Below are positions 58,978-64,000 of a stretch of 64,000 bases of DNA, piece by piece. This DNA is from Deinococcales bacterium (GTDB lineage: Bacteria > Deinococcota > Deinococci > Deinococcales > JAAFIG01). Numbering within the stretch: position 1 is the first letter of the stretch; each line of letters opens with the position of its first letter. The notes below the pieces were generated by a model. That model saw only the letters and a program-made list of their open reading frames with translations, did no database searches and had not been told where the DNA came from. Location: NCBI GenBank assembly GCA_031414595.1, contig JANNVX010000109.1:22791-86790 (forward strand), written 5' to 3'. Made by a program: the position numbers and the translations under genes.

Positions 58978-59019
58978 TTCTCGTCAAACCCATGTCATTT
59001 GATGTTAAACTCGTTACGG

Positions 59020-60045
59020 ATGCAACGTAATTTACACCTCACCTTAGAGCCTTGGAGTCCAGAATACGACACCAGTCTTCATGCCGACCCCAATCAGGCA
59101 AAAGCCATTGAAGATGTCGAACTCGAAGTTGAATTTAGTGTTTGGGGCAAGGTACGCCCCGCCGATTACCGTGTGGATTTTAGTCAATTGTACTTTATAG
59201 ATGGTCGGCGCAGACTCGAGGGGCGAGTCTGGAATACCCTCGATGGTGGAATTATCGCCCCCGGACTGCTTGGCACTCTGGCAGTCGGGGCAGTCACCAC
59301 CAAACACGACACCCTCACCCCAGCCAGAGTCGTGGACAGGGTTCTCGAGCGAATCCTAATTTTATCGGGCGGCACTGGACAAGACTTAATCATCGAAAAT
59401 AGAGGGCATGAATACGGGCGGCTCGAGTACCGCTACGAAGCCTTAAACGAAACCCAGAACTTAGAAAATGCGCTGATGCAACGCTTGCAATTTTTAATGC
59501 GCGATGCCGAAGACAAATTGGCGGGTGGCTTGCCGCTCGAGGATGCGCTGCTGATTTTGGATGGTCCGCTACAACGCCGCGCCCCAGACCGCAGCATGGG
59601 CTATGTTAAAACGCTACATACTTTGTACGTGTCTGGACAAGAACTTGAGGTTCTGCGTCAACTCGAGAAAGGCGAACGCACCCCAGTATTCCGCATTGGC
59701 AGCCGAATTTTGCCACGTTACTCTTGGTATATCCGTCTCGAGAACACCCCCGAGTACATCCAACCTTTTGCGGGTTTGGTTCGCCTTGAAGTGCGCGATG
59801 TGATGGGTCTCGAGTGGGCAAAAAGTATTGCTGATTGGAGTTGTCGTGTTCTACCGCGCTACAGTGCCAAAGCCTTTAGAGACCCTCGAGCGCCACAACA
59901 ACTGATGCCGATTGCTTTTTTGGAATCTGATTTGGGAAGAAGAATGGGTGACATGAGCATCATTCGGCGCAGGATTCAGGCGCATTTAAGAAGTTTGAAC
60001 ACTCGAGAAGCGGAAATTTTAGAACCGCAAACGAACACGAATTAA
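59020..60045 (+). CDS. nurA: NurA family 5'-3' nuclease
   Basis: FIDGRRR, LDGPL, GYVKT, GERTP, DPRAPQQL.PI..LE; upstream of herA. Confidence 0.88.
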   Translation: MQRNLHLTLEPWSPEYDTSLHADPNQAKAIEDVELEVEFSVWGKVRPADYRVDFSQLYFIDGRRRLEGRVWNTLDGGIIAPGLLGTLAVGAVTTKHDTLTPARVVDRVLERILILSGGTGQDLIIENRGHEYGRLEYRYEALNETQNLENALMQRLQFLMRDAEDKLAGGLPLEDALLILDGPLQRRAPDRSMGYVKTLHTLYVSGQELEVLRQLEKGERTPVFRIGSRILPRYSWYIRLENTPEYIQPFAGLVRLEVRDVMGLEWAKSIADWSCRVLPRYSAKAFRDPRAPQQLMPIAFLESDLGRRMGDMSIIRRRIQAHLRSLNTREAEILEPQTNTN

Positions 60046-60047
60046 CC

Positions 60048-60073
60048 CGTAGGGGCGAGGCATGCCTCGCCCC
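60048..60073 (+). repeat. GTAG-type REP, intergenic
   Basis: CGTAGGGGCGAGGCATGCCTCGCCCC. Confidence 0.85.
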
Positions 60074-60120
60074 AACGATTCCCGTCATTAAAATAACCTC
60101 CCACGCACTCCCCCCGCCTT

Positions 60121-60157
60121 CTCTTGACCATAAACGCGCACCTAACGGGCATGGTCG
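60121..60157 (+). mobile_element. ~37-bp structured mini-element, copy E4
   Basis: CTCTT-GACCAT-AAACGC-GCACC-TAAC-GGGC-ATGGTC-G, between the arms of a CGCC/GGCG hairpin and followed by a CCCCCTC/GAGGGGG hairpin. Confidence 0.72.
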
Positions 60158-60223
60158 CTCGGCGACCCCCTCGAAAAGAGGGGGTTTAAGAGCCAAAAAC
60201 CAATACAAAATGGAGACATACCA

Positions 60224-62029
60224 ATGAACCCACCTTTGCAACCAGTCGGAATGATTTTAGGCACTAAAGACAGCGCTCCGCTCGAGTTTTGGGTCGGTGT
60301 CAACGAAGGACAAATGCTGCAACTCGATGATTTGGTGGTAGTGAAAACCAAGAAACCACTCGAGGGGACGAACGATTTTATTTCTTTTTATGGTGTGGTG
60401 GACAGTGTACGAAAACTTCATGAAGGAGTGCAGTTTGATTCGGACACGCGCCTTGCGCTCGAGGGAACAATTCCAGTCAATGTGTCTTACGCGGCGCATG
60501 TGATTGTGACTCGAGTAGACCCCGAAGAATTTGTGCCACCACATCCCGGCGACGAGGTTTGGCACGCGATTGGCAAAGAACTCGAGATGGCGCTGTATCA
60601 AGACCGCATGGAATCGGTCACACCGGCTGGGGTCTTAAGAAATGGTCAGCCCACCTACCTCAATTTTGCTTTTCTGAACGGCGAGAATGGCGCTCATGTC
60701 AACATTAGTGGTGTTTCGGGTGTTGCCACCAAAACCAGCTATGCACTTTTTCTGCTGTACAGCATCTTTAATTCCAATGCCCTAGGACTGGAAAAAAGCA
60801 ATTCTCGAGCCGTGATTTTTAATGTTAAAGGCGAAGATTTACTTTTCTTAGACCAAGAAAACAATAAATTTCGTGACCGTGAAGCCAAACAAAGCGCGGC
60901 TCGAGGCTTAGAAACCGACCGCTACACGGTTTGTGGTTTACCCGCCACGCCTTTTCAGGATGTACAGTTTTTAGCCCCAAATATTGGTACAGAAGGTGTG
61001 ATTACGCACGGCGCATCACAACGTGGGCAAGGCATCACGCCGTACCTTTGGACAATTAAACAATTTGCCCTCGAGCGATTACTGCCGTACTGCTTTGCAG
61101 ACCGTGATGCAAGCCTGAATCTTGGTTTTTTAATTGGTCAAATCGAAGAACGGCTCTTTAAGCTCGGCTCGAGCCAAGATGCCAGCGCCCCGCATATTTT
61201 GGTAGATGACTGGTCACGCGAAGACATTGCCGAAATAGACGACAGTATCGAATTTAACCAAATTGGTAAAGCCAAACTGACCAGTTTTACCCAGTTAATT
61301 GCTTACCTCGAGTACAAGTTAATTGACCAAAACGACGGCGAAGGCGACCCGCGCTGGGCTGGTAAGCAACCAAGTGGCACACGTCAGGCTTTTGTGCGGC
61401 GCTTGCGTGGTGTGGTCAAGCACCTCAATCCACTCATCCGAGGCGATTTAGACGCGGCTCGAGCCGCCGCTTACCGCCCCGACCCAATGCGGAATCAGCT
61501 TAGTGTAGTGGATATTCACGGGCTGCACAGCCACGCGCAAATGTTTGTGGTTGGGGTGATTTTGAAGCAACTGTTTGAGGACAAAGAACGCAAAGGGCGC
61601 ACACCCTATGTTTTTGTGGTGCTGGATGAGTTGAATAAATACGCCCCTCGAGACGGCGAAAGCCCAATTAAAGATGTGCTGCTCGATATTGCCGAACGTG
61701 GGCGGAGCTTGGGGATAATTTTAATTGGCGCTCAGCAAACGGCTTCTGAGGTTGAACGGCGGATTGTTTCAAACGCCAGTATTCGTGTGGTCGGGCGCTT
61801 AGACCCCGCCGAAGCCGAACGCCCAGAGTACAGGTTTTTACCAGCCGCCTTTAGAATGCGCTCTGGGATTTTGCAGCCCGGGACAATGATTGTGAGTCAG
61901 CCCGAAGTGCCAAGCCCTGTGATGATTACTTTTCCGTTTCCAGCATGGGCAACCCGCCGTGATGAAGTCAAAGACATGCCGACGACAAGGGAAGAATCGG
62001 AGAAAGTGGCGGCTGATTGGCTAACCTAA
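60224..62029 (+). CDS. herA: HerA family ATPase/DNA translocase
   Basis: HAS barrel N-terminus, [44 protein letters not shown]. Confidence 0.9.
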
Positions 62030-62048: not shown

Positions 62049-62076
62049 AATCTTACTTGTCACTTAAAGTAAGATT
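62049..62076. promoter_or_regulatory. Probable antitoxin operator
   Basis: Perfect 10-bp inverted repeat AATCTTACTT-N8-AAGTAAGATT just upstream of the antitoxin ATG. Confidence 0.7.
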
Positions 62077-62080
62077 TATT

Positions 62081-62347
62081 ATGGAACACTCGAGAATCAG
62101 CAGCAAAGGGCAATTGGTAATCCCAAAAGGTTTGCGTGAAAAACTCGATTGGCGCGAAGGTGACGAGATTATATTCAGTCTCGAGGACAATAAACTGACC
62201 CTGCAAGCGCTTGCCAAGCGCGACTTGAGCGAAGTGCTAAGCCAACTCGAGCCTAGCCCCGCCAAGGTGGTGTACACCGATTTTGACCACTTGCTCGAGG
62301 TAGAAAAACAAAGTGCCAAAGCCCGTCGCGCTCGAGAGCGCTCGTAA
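62081..62347 (+). CDS. AbrB/MazE/SpoVT-family antitoxin (VapB)
   Basis: SRISSKGQLVIPKGLREKL...EGDEI. Confidence 0.9.
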   Translation: MEHSRISSKGQLVIPKGLREKLDWREGDEIIFSLEDNKLTLQALAKRDLSEVLSQLEPSPAKVVYTDFDHLLEVEKQSAKARRARERS

Positions 62348-62733
62348 TGTGGACAGATACCAATATCTTAGTGCGTTTGGTGACACAACATCCAACAGCC
62401 CAATTTCAAGCTGTGCAAGGCTACTTGCAAACGGTAACTACGGCTGTAAAAGTACATCCAGCCCATATTTGTGAAGCCCTTTATGTCCTCGAGGGGCAGG
62501 TTTATCAGTTCACGACCACTCGAGCCGCGCAAGAACTCGAACTGATTTTAAGTGCCAGTTGTTTTGAAGTCATAGACGCAATTGCTACTGTCAAGGCATT
62601 ACGAGCCTACCCAGCCAGCAACCTTGATTTTCCAGATGTACTGCTCTGCGAATTGGCTCGAGCCGAAGCAAGCGAGGTACTGACCTTTGATAAGAAAATG
62701 GCGCGTCTAGGTGTACCCATTCAGATACCCTAG
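62347..62733 (+). CDS. PIN-domain toxin (VapC)
   Basis: DTNILVR, ICEALYVL, DFPD, LTFD; TAATG coupling to the antitoxin. Confidence 0.9.
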   Translation: MWTDTNILVRLVTQHPTAQFQAVQGYLQTVTTAVKVHPAHICEALYVLEGQVYQFTTTRAAQELELILSASCFEVIDAIATVKALRAYPASNLDFPDVLLCELARAEASEVLTFDKKMARLGVPIQIP

Positions 62734-62885
62734 CTCGCCTATCGTTTTTTGTGGAAAATATGGGAAGCCCAGACGACCAATTCTTAAACTGAGAAAGCGG
62801 CAGCTGATTGGTTTTTGTAGACTTTAACACCGAATACAGCACATGTAGTATTTAGAAATATTGCATATTATGCTAAGTGCCACAA

Positions 62886-63167
62886 TTATTTTTGCTCACA
62901 GAAGGAGCTAGTCTTGGTACGCTTAAGTATCTTTTCAAGATTGCAAAAAGCTACTGTTAATTCTTTCAAGTTCTTGTCGGCTTGTTCATTTTTTTGTTTC
63001 AATATTTTATATTCTGATGCCTTTTGCGAATTTTGAATTAAATTATAAAAAGTACCTATAAAAAGTGTAGCTATAAAGAAAAGAATAATTAGGTTAAAAT
63101 AATTCACTTGTTTGTCAAATGAGTTATTTTTTTCTTCATCTAAAATAAAATCTCGACCATGTTTCAT
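62886..63167 (-). CDS. Small single-TM, coiled-coil hypothetical protein (AT-rich island)
   Basis: One hydrophobic helix then a K/Q/E-rich helix; ATGA overlap with the GTPase stop. Confidence 0.7.
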   Translation of the reverse strand: MKHGRDFILDEEKNNSFDKQVNYFNLIILFFIATLFIGTFYNLIQNSQKASEYKILKQKNEQADKNLKELTVAFCNLEKILKRTKTSSFCEQK

Positions 63168-63865
63168 ATTAATTTCTCTATGTAATCGTCTCTGATGCTA
63201 TTGATGTGATTAGTATTTGTTGCATCAATAACCAGAGTGCGAAAAAAACGACCTGAGGAGTAGCCATTCAATGATTTAATTAAATCCATATAAGAATTTT
63301 GCGCTTTTTCTGTGATCAAAACATTACTTATATTTTCGTTTGGATTCAATGCAGTAAGGCAATTTACTTTATTTATAAGTAAGAACATCCTATTAGGTCG
63401 ACATTTTTTAATCAATAAATCAACCATCCATTTTGAGAAAAAAGACTTATTTTCTTTAATTCTGTTTGTATCAAAGCTGTTTTGTATTGGAGTTGGCTGC
63501 CCTTGTAGTAGTGGTGGGCTAAATAAATCAACCATAAAAATTATGCCATACCATTTAATATTAGAATTATAGATTGAATCTATTGTTTGTTTTATATCTT
63601 GCCCCGCTGTATCCCAATAATGCACACGGCTATTTGGACTTTTTGAAGAGTATTTTTGCACTGAACTTGTTGGTATTGTTGAAATGTTACTTGCACTTAC
63701 TACTTGGTTGATAAATTCAGATTTACCTGCTCCTCCAACACCAAGAATCAAAATATTTTTATCTCGATTTGGTGAGAAGCTTTGAATAAATCTCCAAATT
63801 GAAGTAAAAAAATAGCTCCAAGTAAATTTTACGATTTGCTGAAAAACAAATCCTCCAAATAACAA
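63164..63865 (-). CDS. Ras-superfamily small GTPase, Arf/Sar-like (AT-rich island); start codon uncertain
   Basis: G1 GVGGAGKS, G2 TIPT, G3 WDTAGQ, GIIFMVD, G4 variant NKVN, G5-like DAT. Confidence 0.8.
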   Translation of the reverse strand: MLFGGFVFQQIVKFTWSYFFTSIWRFIQSFSPNRDKNILILGVGGAGKSEFINQVVSASNISTIPTSSVQKYSSKSPNSRVHYWDTAGQDIKQTIDSIYNSNIKWYGIIFMVDLFSPPLLQGQPTPIQNSFDTNRIKENKSFFSKWMVDLLIKKCRPNRMFLLINKVNCLTALNPNENISNVLITEKAQNSYMDLIKSLNGYSSGRFFRTLVIDATNTNHINSIRDDYIEKLI

Positions 63866-64000
63866 TAGTCTGGAACGTTTTTTAAATTTAAGAAATTAAA
63901 AGTGGAAGCCCTACTGTAAGCTGTGAGTGTCTAAACCAACGCTCCAAAAAGGCTTCCATGACTATCTTAAACCAAATTCTGACCTTAGCGGGTATTCGCA

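Follow-up and report, generated by a model that had tools for sequence, protein, structure and literature searches.

A putative membrane-anchored GTPase and its bitopic partner in an AT-rich island of a Deinococcales genome, with the GTPase gene split by an IS701-like element

The DNA analysed here (the window) is a stretch of 64,000 nucleotides from a Deinococcales bacterium (assembly GCA_031414595.1, contig JANNVX010000109.1, positions 22,791 to 86,790 of the forward strand). It represents the final 64 kb of its contig, and contig and window both end inside an insertion sequence (IS). The subject of this report is a gene for a small GTPase near that end, together with the gene for a small membrane protein (the partner) coupled to it and the IS by which it is interrupted. 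The features concerned are the following.

62886..63167, minus strand: partner gene, 93 aa, overlapping the GTPase stop in ATGA; begins MKHGRD, with a transmembrane (TM) segment at about residues 23-45 and a Lys/Glu-rich helical tail
63164..63862, minus strand: 3' part of the GTPase gene, codons 2-233 and stop, recognized from the open reading frame (ORF), the Pfam family Arf, an AF2 model and homology to a bacterial family
63362..63373, minus strand: G4 motif NKVN, residues 165-168, with Asn in place of the guanine-specifying Asp
63599..63616, minus strand: G3 motif WDTAGQ, residues 84-89; D85 is invariant in the family, G88 and Q89 nearly so
63668..63679, minus strand: switch I motif TIPT, residues 63-66, with Arf-like wording, T66 being nearly invariant in the family
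63719..63742, minus strand: G1 motif (P-loop) GVGGAGKS, residues 42-49; G42, G47 and K48 are invariant in the 22-row alignment described below
63858..63862, either strand: target-site duplication AATAA, whose second copy lies at the right end of the IS on contig C29
63863..63865, minus strand: apparent TTG start codon, formed by the first three bases of the IS (CAA) at the repeat boundary CAATAGTCTGG common to 8 contig ends
63863..64000, plus strand: IS701-like element, left terminal 138 bp of 1327 bp, recognized from recurring contig ends; the ATG of its transposase is at 63958

The apparent ORF (63164-63865, minus strand) encodes 233 aa from a TTG start. A GTPase of about 230 aa had been proposed in the preliminary description of this DNA, and all of the motifs named there were found: GVGGAGKS, TIPT, WDTAGQ, FMVD (residues 110-113) and NKVN. 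Encoded in 63164..63862 are the latter half of a TM helix, an aromatic juxtamembrane helix and the G domain, and the AF2 model (pLDDT 83, pTM 0.77) showed a standard small-GTPase fold after a long helix. Since the TTG start is built from bases of the IS, the true 5' end of the gene was deduced to lie elsewhere.

The boundary of the IS was established from its other copies. Seven more contig ends of this genome carry the sequence 63863-64000 at 99-100% identity, giving eight left ends that all start at the same base with CAATAGTCTGGAACG, while the right end of the element, an inverted repeat ...CATTCCAGACTATTG, closes eight further contig ends. Six of the eight left ends were matched to a right end through an identical 5-mer flank. 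A complete copy in a same-genus genome encodes a 404-aa transposase with matches to Pfam DDE_5 (E 1.7e-11) and DDE_Tnp_1; the combination of DDE_5 with a 4-5-bp duplication is what we take to denote IS701. Contigs from the Logan collection were also compared, from runs X1-X3, which are a possible source of the assembly, and from run X5, which belongs to a different study. In X1-X3 the contigs lead out of the island into the IS, and an IS contig of 1327 bp begins exactly at 63863 at a depth about 12x that of the flank.

The continuation of the gene was found on contig C29, at the right end of the IS. Read in the direction of the gene, this flank ends ...ATG TTA TT and is in frame with the window ORF; the frame is open for 62 codons upstream of the junction, with an ATG 55 codons before the junction ATG. 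The X5 contig covers 63716-63864 with one differing letter and then continues with TAGCTGTAAT, the next ten letters of the C29 flank. As this contig reads across into the C29 letters, an uninterrupted allele exists in a close relative, a strain about 96% identical over the covered parts. The uninterrupted sequence has an ATG at the place of the IS-borne TTG. The GTPase gene was thus cut in two by an IS701-like insertion, and neither a frameshift nor a chimeric assembly is involved; this point is settled. The preliminary description had left a frameshift in doubt on account of an upstream minus-strand ATG at 63959 (MEAFLERWF), a doubt removed by the IS boundary at 63863, the pairing of AATAA with C29 and the X5 junction: the ATG lies inside the IS, overlaps the transposase start (63958, plus strand) and is unrelated to the GTPase. 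A chimeric join at 63860-63960, for which a check against reads had been proposed, was likewise not upheld by the read contigs, since the island-IS join is present in X1-X3 and the uninterrupted junction in X5.

Contamination of the assembly or a chimeric join as the source of the segment is considered so improbable as to be negligible. Its GC content (0.31 against 0.47 for the genome), its location at a contig end and the fact that the genome is metagenome-assembled would fit such an origin. However, in each of three runs single contigs lead from host-type, CTCGAG-rich DNA with a vapBC pair into the island with every letter identical, and the terminal IS belongs to the multicopy element of this same genome. 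On the opposite side, C29 consists of host DNA in which CTCGAG sites reach to within about 220 bp of the IS, and the uninterrupted junction was seen in an independent study (X5).

The piece on C29 contains two hydrophobic segments, at residues 6-24 (ending ...VFAQ, signal-peptide-like) and at residues 43-57, up to the junction; the hydrophobic first 11 residues of the window ORF continue the second of these. The intact gene would therefore encode about 288 aa, comprising a predicted signal peptide, an external segment of about 20 residues, a TM helix, the juxtamembrane aromatic helix and a cytoplasmic G domain. The amphipathic aromatic helix had previously been placed at the N terminus of the protein; this no longer holds, as 55 codons with a signal peptide and half a TM helix precede it. 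A TATAAT lies 6 nt before the upstream ATG on C29. Leaderless starts are common in Deinococcus, and the spacing would fit such a start at this ATG. Simple promoter and terminator scans gave nothing convincing on the strand of the gene and did not pick up the TATAAT.

It was also considered that the 233-aa ORF could be a complete, functional gene starting at the junction ATG, with the IS located in its promoter region and perhaps driving its expression. An in-frame ATG does lie exactly at the place of the IS-borne TTG, and the whole G domain is kept in the 233-aa product. This alternative was judged very unlikely. The chance of 62 open codons in DNA of about 33% GC is about 0.006 (a rough value, assuming about 0.08 stops per codon), and their translation resembles a signal peptide and then supplies the initial half of a hydrophobic helix that window residues 1-11 complete. 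Membrane segments are moreover present in 18 of 22 relatives, and the TATAAT stands 6 nt ahead of the upstream ATG.

The relatives in question were collected in a 22-sequence alignment that included the window protein and was drawn from phmmer matches, a profile search, genome contigs and metagenome contigs. The columns G42, G47, K48, D85, D113, R135, N165 and K166 were invariant, and T66, G88, Q89, the Asp of G4 and the G-S-A of G5 were nearly invariant, the last two each being kept in at least 90% of the rows. The window protein carries the VDLFSPP block of this family (as FMVDLFSPP) and R135. It departs from the family in G4, where Asp was found in 21 of the 21 other members and Asn in the window protein alone, and in G5, which reads IDA instead of GSA; by eye it is the sole row lacking GSA or the G4 Asp. 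The substitution in G4 had been noted in the preliminary description and is confirmed here. In Ras (D119N) and EF-Tu (D138N), replacement of this Asp by Asn moves specificity away from guanine, and NKVN would be expected to weaken guanine specificity in favour of xanthine nucleotides.

A hydrophobic segment before the P-loop was present in 18 of the 22 aligned members, and nine of the 22 had two, as a signal peptide followed by a TM helix would give. No such segment was seen in the window piece, in two sequences that look like fragments, or in P0016; P0037, from the same cluster as P0016, has one. In one subgroup the external segment reads as Cys-rich. At E<=0.01 the Pfam families matched by the 22 members were GTP_EFTU (21, all but the window protein), Roc (16), G-alpha (9), Arf (7), Gtr1_RagA (6), SRPRB (4) and Ras (2); the Arf match of the window protein was by far the best in the family and the only strong one. 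The family profile compared with the PDB showed no preference for Arf: midasin came first (from summed P-loop matches), followed by G-alpha, Ran, Rab12 and LRRK2-Roc, at E 1e-5 to 1e-3. The family was found in Pseudomonadota, Myxococcota and Deinococcota, and in about 15 billion proteins clustered at 90% identity the clusters of nine relatives had one or two members each.

The likeness of the window protein to this bacterial family, exemplified by WP_125932093.1 of Thiosocius teredinicola ("GTPase domain-containing protein") and by proteins annotated at JGI as "GTPase SAR1 family protein", extends from G-domain homology to the VVDLFxPP block, the invariant Arg, the NK of G4, a signal peptide and/or TM anchor at the N terminus and a one-TM partner, encoded downstream, that carries an RD motif. 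It differs in having no 7-25-residue insertion between beta2 and beta3, in reading WDTAGQ where most relatives read D-D/E-Y-x-G-Q, in the G4 and G5 substitutions described above, and in branching outside a clade formed by the 22 others. In two Myxococcales metagenome-assembled genomes (MAGs) and one Pseudomonadota MAG (loci L013, L014 and L015) the GTPase is larger (476-541 aa), a long linker joining its N-terminal TM segment to the G domain, and is followed in each by a gene for 697-724 aa without a Pfam family. One family member is carried on a metagenome contig of 1445 bp with a GC content of 0.29 (L020) and is not specially close to the window protein in the tree; AT-rich organisms therefore carry the family and could be donors.

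The protein had originally been described as following the layout of Arf, Arl and Sar1 GTPases rather than that of MglA. Its best Pfam family was indeed Arf (PF00025; 38.1 bits against a cut-off of 22.3, E 1.4e-9), followed by Roc, MMR_HSR1 and Ras, but the Arf match was restricted to residues 30-114, corresponding to profile positions 9-91 of 174, and so did not span the whole G domain. Similarly, the best PDB sequences were Arf1 and Arf6 (E 1.7e-5), over residues 29-114 only. A single-protein, word-based homologue search returned only the window's own product. Against 1.84 billion representatives, phmmer gave 18 matches at E<=1e-3, among them P0001, which is the product of the window gene itself. 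Seven were bacterial proteins of 240-390 aa that aligned over the whole G domain at 22-31% identity, the best being P0002 (E 2e-6, residues 36-231). Another seven were eukaryote-type Arf proteins, six of which aligned only within residues 16-137, the seventh (P0004) being a tandem Arf with two matched stretches. The other three were a Rab/Roc-like protein, a multi-Ras protein and a cell-wall hydrolase-type protein with PA14/SH3 that looks spurious.

With hhalign, the C-terminal half (residues 105-233) matched A4, one of two subgroup alignments of the bacterial family, with a probability of 98.5% (E 3.4e-15, 117 columns) and the other, A3, at E 4.4e-7, whereas four Arf sequences were matched with a probability of only 30% (E 5e-4, 26 columns). 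These four rows had been chosen among matches to the window query itself, which biases the comparison toward Arf. R75 and W78, invariant in the four Arf rows, are replaced in the window protein by Gln93 and Asp96 (our own count). Arf proteins have a regulated amphipathic helix at the very N terminus; in the protein studied here, two hydrophobic segments precede the corresponding helix.

Structural comparison did not separate the candidates. Foldseek E values of about 1e-7 to 1e-6 were common to mini-Gs, Arf, Arl, Rag and others, and VIA-align Z scores of 14-15.6 were shared, within about 1.5 units, by Rag/Gtr1, Arl, G-alpha, EF-Tu and Rab. The top structural score was obtained for Gtr1p (Z 15.6, rmsd 2.7 A, 163 residues aligned), in a tie with Arl chains. 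As the Z scores of several GTPase families are nearly equal, structure does not decide between them. A maximum-likelihood tree was built from 28 rows (23 of the family, 4 Arf and 1 Rab/Roc-like), a reference set far too small; the window row was placed between the family clade and Arf, in a position without support. In amino-acid composition, both the window row and the Arf row most similar to it are deviant, and compositional attraction between them is therefore possible.

Capture by a bacterium of a true Arf GTPase, eukaryotic or Asgard (ArfR) in origin, that binds membranes GTP-dependently through its N-terminal amphipathic helix would account for Arf as the best Pfam family and for Arf1 and Arf6 as the best solved relatives by sequence. 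It would also account for the TIPT and WDxxGQ wording, the ungapped interswitch of Arf length, the presence of Arf-like chains among the top structures (Z 14-15) and a p value of 0.35 for grouping with Arf in an approximately unbiased (AU) test. We nevertheless regard such an origin as highly doubtful: only half of the Arf profile is matched, the C-terminal half goes with the bacterial family, Gln and Asp stand at the places of the invariant Arg and Trp, and the helix sits behind a signal peptide and a TM helix rather than at the N terminus. The structural tie extends to Rag/Gtr1, G-alpha, EF-Tu and Rab, and part of the similarity could be the result of compositional attraction. We read the window protein as an outlying lineage, sister to the bacterial family of membrane-anchored GTPases, and not as a member of Arf, and the label "eukaryote-like Arf" should not be used in its annotation. 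The Arf-like G1-G3 half may be ancestral, convergent or compositional. Of the original assignment, the G1-G3 layout therefore stands; by its C-terminal half, its membrane layout and its partner gene, the protein belongs with the bacterial family.

The partner gene was also deduced to be a property of the family. An ATGA-coupled protein with a single TM segment had been reported downstream of the GTPase, and the 93-aa ORF at 62886-63167 has one TM segment as stated. No family in Pfam, NCBIfam or PADLOC was found for it. Eight relative loci with a single-domain family GTPase were examined for a partner, and six of the eight had a one-TM ORF of 96-185 aa downstream, 3-33 bases away on the same strand: L011 (a Rhodobacterales MAG), L012 (Ca. 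Parabeggiatoa), L016, L017, L019 and L021. In L016 the motif and the TM segment are present in a frame that lacks a canonical start codon. Of the two remaining loci, L018 had no partner frame in its remaining 279 bp, and the L020 contig stops 196 bp after the GTPase gene. The relatives' partners have a charged N terminus of the form M-x-N-W-R-D-[PR]..., one TM segment and a helical tail, and the window partner aligns with them, R5 and D6 being invariant. The earlier proposal of a coupled two-gene membrane module was in this way supported by the neighbourhoods of the relatives. A partner profile built from six sequences and compared with 5.8 billion clusters found eight proteins, all annotated as "hypothetical protein" and without a Pfam domain on record. 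In PHROGs, the partner was weakly similar to Rz-like spanins (E 0.005).

The origin of the cassette was considered from its composition, its distribution and its surroundings, for which two further features are needed.

62057..62733, plus strand: toxin-antitoxin (TA) pair, a MazE/AbrB-type antitoxin (96 aa; Pfam MazE_antitoxin, E 1.4e-10) and a PIN toxin (128 aa; Pfam PIN, E 2.1e-9)
62658..63862, both strands: AT-rich, CTCGAG-free island, recognized from composition, with about 220 bp more on contig C29 past the IS

In 500-bp windows the GC content is 0.27-0.34 from 62750 to the end of the window and 0.42-0.53 in the 12 kb before; over 62750-63860 it is 0.309, against 0.472 genome-wide. The hexamer CTCGAG occurs 23,235 times in the genome (5.2 per kb, 24x the expectation from base composition) and 321 times in the window (5.0 per kb). 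Its final copy in the window is at 62657, which leaves 1205 bp free of sites up to the last base before the IS (63862), the longest gap elsewhere in the window being 979 bp. At the genome density, the Poisson probability of no site in the 1020-bp island is 0.005. With the base composition of the island itself multiplied by the genome enrichment, the expectation is only about 1.5 sites. The C29 flank resembles the island, with a GC content of 0.33 in its last 250 bp and its last CTCGAG about 220 bp from the IS. An AT-rich, CTCGAG-free end from about 62750 had been described at the outset, and the GC windows and the site-free gap bear it out. Its extension to the end of the window is correct up to 63862; the remaining 63863-64000 is the terminal 138 bp of the multicopy IS.

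The GTPase protein was not found in 60 relatives at E<=1e-3 (7 of the same genus, 11 of the family and 42 of the order), and the family profile had no match at E<=1e-8 in 363 other genomes of the phylum, many of them incomplete. With the IS removed, the gene order is an integrase gene with tRNA-Ala, YebC with a 202-aa ORF, and the GTPase with its partner; beyond the partner follow, convergently, the PIN toxin and its antitoxin, a HerA-like ATPase gene and a 348-aa ORF. The position of the cassette next to a vapBC pair, as earlier described, agrees with the TA pair at 62057..62733, which is convergent with the cassette. In a same-genus genome (L036, G003:C28:56363-59396) the HerA-like gene is followed by a Phd/YoeB-like pair (assigned by eye), then by an AT-rich 262-aa gene without a Pfam family and a C29-type flank, so that the vapBC pair and the GTPase cassette are replaced. 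The same flanks with a different cargo in a same-genus genome identify the site as a hotspot with changing cargo. The horizontal acquisition suspected in the preliminary description is in keeping with all of these data: the AT-rich and CTCGAG-free composition, the failure to find a counterpart in the 60 relatives and the 363 phylum genomes, and the variable hotspot show, at the level of sequence, that the cassette was horizontally acquired. The YebC protein encoded on C29 shares a 90%-identity cluster with one ascribed by NCBI to a "Deinococcota bacterium". The runs that contain the island are freshwater sediment metagenomes.

An origin from a phage was rejected, as the sequence searches in phage collections were negative. 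No match was obtained by tblastn against 50,697 phage records and no relative in IMG/VR, and PHROGs gave only E 0.068 for the GTPase. As a lead only, the nearest clusters by language-model features in the ESM Atlas were Uroviricota hypothetical proteins of about 220 aa (score 0.95, 180/256 features).

Several elements adjoin the cassettes of the relatives. A ParE/Phd pair and a ParA gene are present in L011, an integrase-like fragment in L016 and an IS110-like transposase fragment in L021, the last two recognized by eye and without a Pfam match. No conserved third gene was found in these neighbourhoods, and LepA and a P-type ATPase are among the neighbours. The extreme rarity of the family, its spread across distant phyla and its occurrence in variable, TA-rich regions suggest a mobile accessory function.

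Taken as a whole, the locus is interpreted as a horizontally acquired two-gene cassette encoding a membrane-anchored GTPase and a bitopic partner, the first gene of which has been split by an IS701-like insertion, and we consider this interpretation reasonably probable. In the proposed mechanism, the G domain would act as a nucleotide-dependent switch at the inner face of the membrane, and the cytoplasmic (W)RD motif of the partner and/or its TM helix would contact the G domain as a regulator or effector. With the variable external segments of both proteins, the pair could form a minimal transmembrane module, whose output may be envelope signalling, or else membrane damage or defence against mobile elements. 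The anatomy, the IS split, the kinship with the family, the conservation of the gene pair and its horizontal origin have been shown, and this switch and partner mechanism and a loss of function at the present locus are inferred. The module is probably inactive in this genome, because the IS removes the promoter, the start codon, the signal peptide and half of the TM helix, and because the NKVN of G4 and the IDA of G5 depart from the family.

Several findings weigh against this interpretation. The IS supplies a TTG from which a truncated 233-aa product could be translated. No effector domain was found in the GTPase-partner pair, and PADLOC-DB 2.0 gave zero families at E<=1 for either protein. 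In the N-terminal half, hhalign of residues 30-104 gave E 2.2e-12 without gaps against Arf, compared with E 5.3e-8 and a 12-column gap against A4; the four Arf rows were again those chosen among matches to this query. In the 28-row tree, the 22 other family rows formed a clade (98/95) without the window row, and AU tests, with too few references, rejected neither a grouping of the window protein with the family (p 0.42) nor one with Arf (p 0.35). Lastly, the W of the WRD motif in the partner is Gly in the window (GRD).

A related and compatible explanation is that the cassette is a defence module of the abortive-infection type, directed against phages or mobile elements, in which the GTPase would sense a signal or set its threshold and the partner would damage the membrane. 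This suggestion is tentative, and we think it rather unlikely. It is consistent with a tiny autonomous two-gene cassette of patchy occurrence in three phyla, with its place in a variable hotspot that extends from the HerA-like ATPase gene pair to the tRNA-Ala/integrase region beside vapBC, and with the toxin-antitoxin genes, integrase-like peptide and IS110-like fragment near the relatives' cassettes. The weak spanin resemblance of the partner and the phage proteins nearest in the Atlas, the latter again as a lead only, point in the same direction. On the other hand, a TM segment and a coiled coil alone would give similarity to spanins, PADLOC had no match for either protein, and tblastn, PHROGs and IMG/VR yielded no phage relative. 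The relatives moreover share no conserved third gene and have several housekeeping neighbours, and toxicity received no support from the analysis.

A further proposal, which we consider improbable, regards the window protein as having survived from an early branch of a bacterial lineage that links Arf/SRbeta-type GTPases to type-I membrane-anchored GTPases, the pair being an unrecognised minimal transmembrane GTPase system for signalling or abortive infection. If true, the system would be the counterpart in bacteria of membrane-anchored switches of the SRbeta type, with a natural NKxN variant that may no longer be guanine-specific.

The predicted membrane-anchored GTPase and its partner were then compared with known systems. 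With Arf (PF00025) the protein shares the wording and spacing of ILILGxxxAGK, TIPT, WDxxGQ and GxIFxVD, the interswitch length and a site at the membrane. It differs in matching only half of the profile, in lacking the Arg and Trp of switch II, in its C-terminal half, in its attachment by a signal peptide and TM helix, in its NKVN motif and in the dedicated bitopic partner gene. SRbeta is the one Arf-related GTPase known to have an N-terminal TM anchor, and it works with a dedicated partner. That partner, SRalpha, is a large GTPase, unlike the 93-aa bitopic protein found here, and we know of no signal peptide or external segment in SRbeta. Four of the 22 family members had weak matches to SRPRB (PF09439; best E 2.9e-5), and the window protein scored 12.8 bits against a cut-off of 25 (E 0.077). 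In the available part of a recent account, SRbeta is nested in the Arf family and described as eukaryote-specific (bioRxiv 10.1101/2024.02.28.582541).

Rag/Gtr1 (PF04670) gave the highest structural score, in the tie with Arl, and weak Gtr1_RagA matches for six of the 22 family members. However, the window protein has no Gtr1_RagA match at E<=1 and no C-terminal roadblock, ending with the G domain, and Rag GTPases have no TM anchor. MglA, in the portion of PMC4316618 at hand, lacks the conserved Asp of G3. The window protein has this Asp (D85 in WDTAGQ), and its earlier separation from MglA is upheld. DO-GTPases, as far as the accessible text of Kaur et al. 2020 (PMC7159879) goes, have a dedicated downstream partner, are often located near the membrane and, in about 13%, have N-terminal TM segments, and a role as a switch in conflict systems has been proposed for them. 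The same text sets these systems apart from the present pair by their zinc ribbons, a large three-domain GAP1 partner and effector domains (PMC7159879). No DO-GTPase model was among the Pfam matches of the window protein at E<=1.

The MglA and Rup families are described without a membrane anchor on the GTPase in the part of PMC4316618 referred to above, and the available part of bioRxiv 10.1101/2024.02.28.582541 lists MglA, Rup1-3, RasL, Rag, ArfL and ArfR and there makes no mention of a bacterial TM-anchored group. In the literature searched, parts of which were available as extracts, no description was found of a family of GTPases tethered by a signal peptide and TM helix and accompanied by a bitopic partner. 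The novelty is judged to lie in the membrane architecture and the partner, joined to a known type of G domain, that of the Ras superfamily. Prokaryotic small GTPases are described, in the same extracts, as soluble single-domain switches (MglA, Rup, ArfL/ArfR and Rag-like), a pattern from which the family departs. Should it prove to be a membrane switch or a defence system, it would offer a two-protein model for coupling a Ras-type G domain across the bacterial membrane. The practical yield from this genome is smaller, as its copy is split by an IS and probably dead.

A few observations were made on the surroundings of the locus. Within the window, 58999-62029 holds the 348-aa ORF, which has no family, followed by a 601-aa ORF with weak PADLOC matches to HerA/mads8 (E 6e-9 to 3e-3) and no Pfam match; the two may make up a HerA-type system of two genes at the edge of the hotspot. 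Immediately upstream of the island there is a dispersed repeat of about 60 bp (L009 5487-5545, on C29), which is also found at C29:48649-48707 and, at 85-95% identity, in five same-genus genomes. In L017, near-identical ORFs starting MPITFSAQELTYAATALRAAS... at 301-543 and 2173-2376 flank the cassette as direct repeats.

Two features of the genome as a whole were also apparent. After CTCGAG (24x), the next palindromic hexamer is enriched just 2.2x, and several hexamers are nearly absent genome-wide (CGATCG, n=3; GACGTC, n=3; TGCGCA, n=2; GGGCCC, n=0). CTCGAG thus looks like a highly iterated palindrome combined with strong avoidance of restriction sites, and a literature search on CTCGAG iteration found nothing. 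The contig ends fall mostly into repeat families of 53, 22, 20, 17, 13, 12, 10, 8 and 8 ends, with smaller ones besides. From these large repeat families, the genome seems to be unusually rich in insertion sequences, which fragment its assembly.

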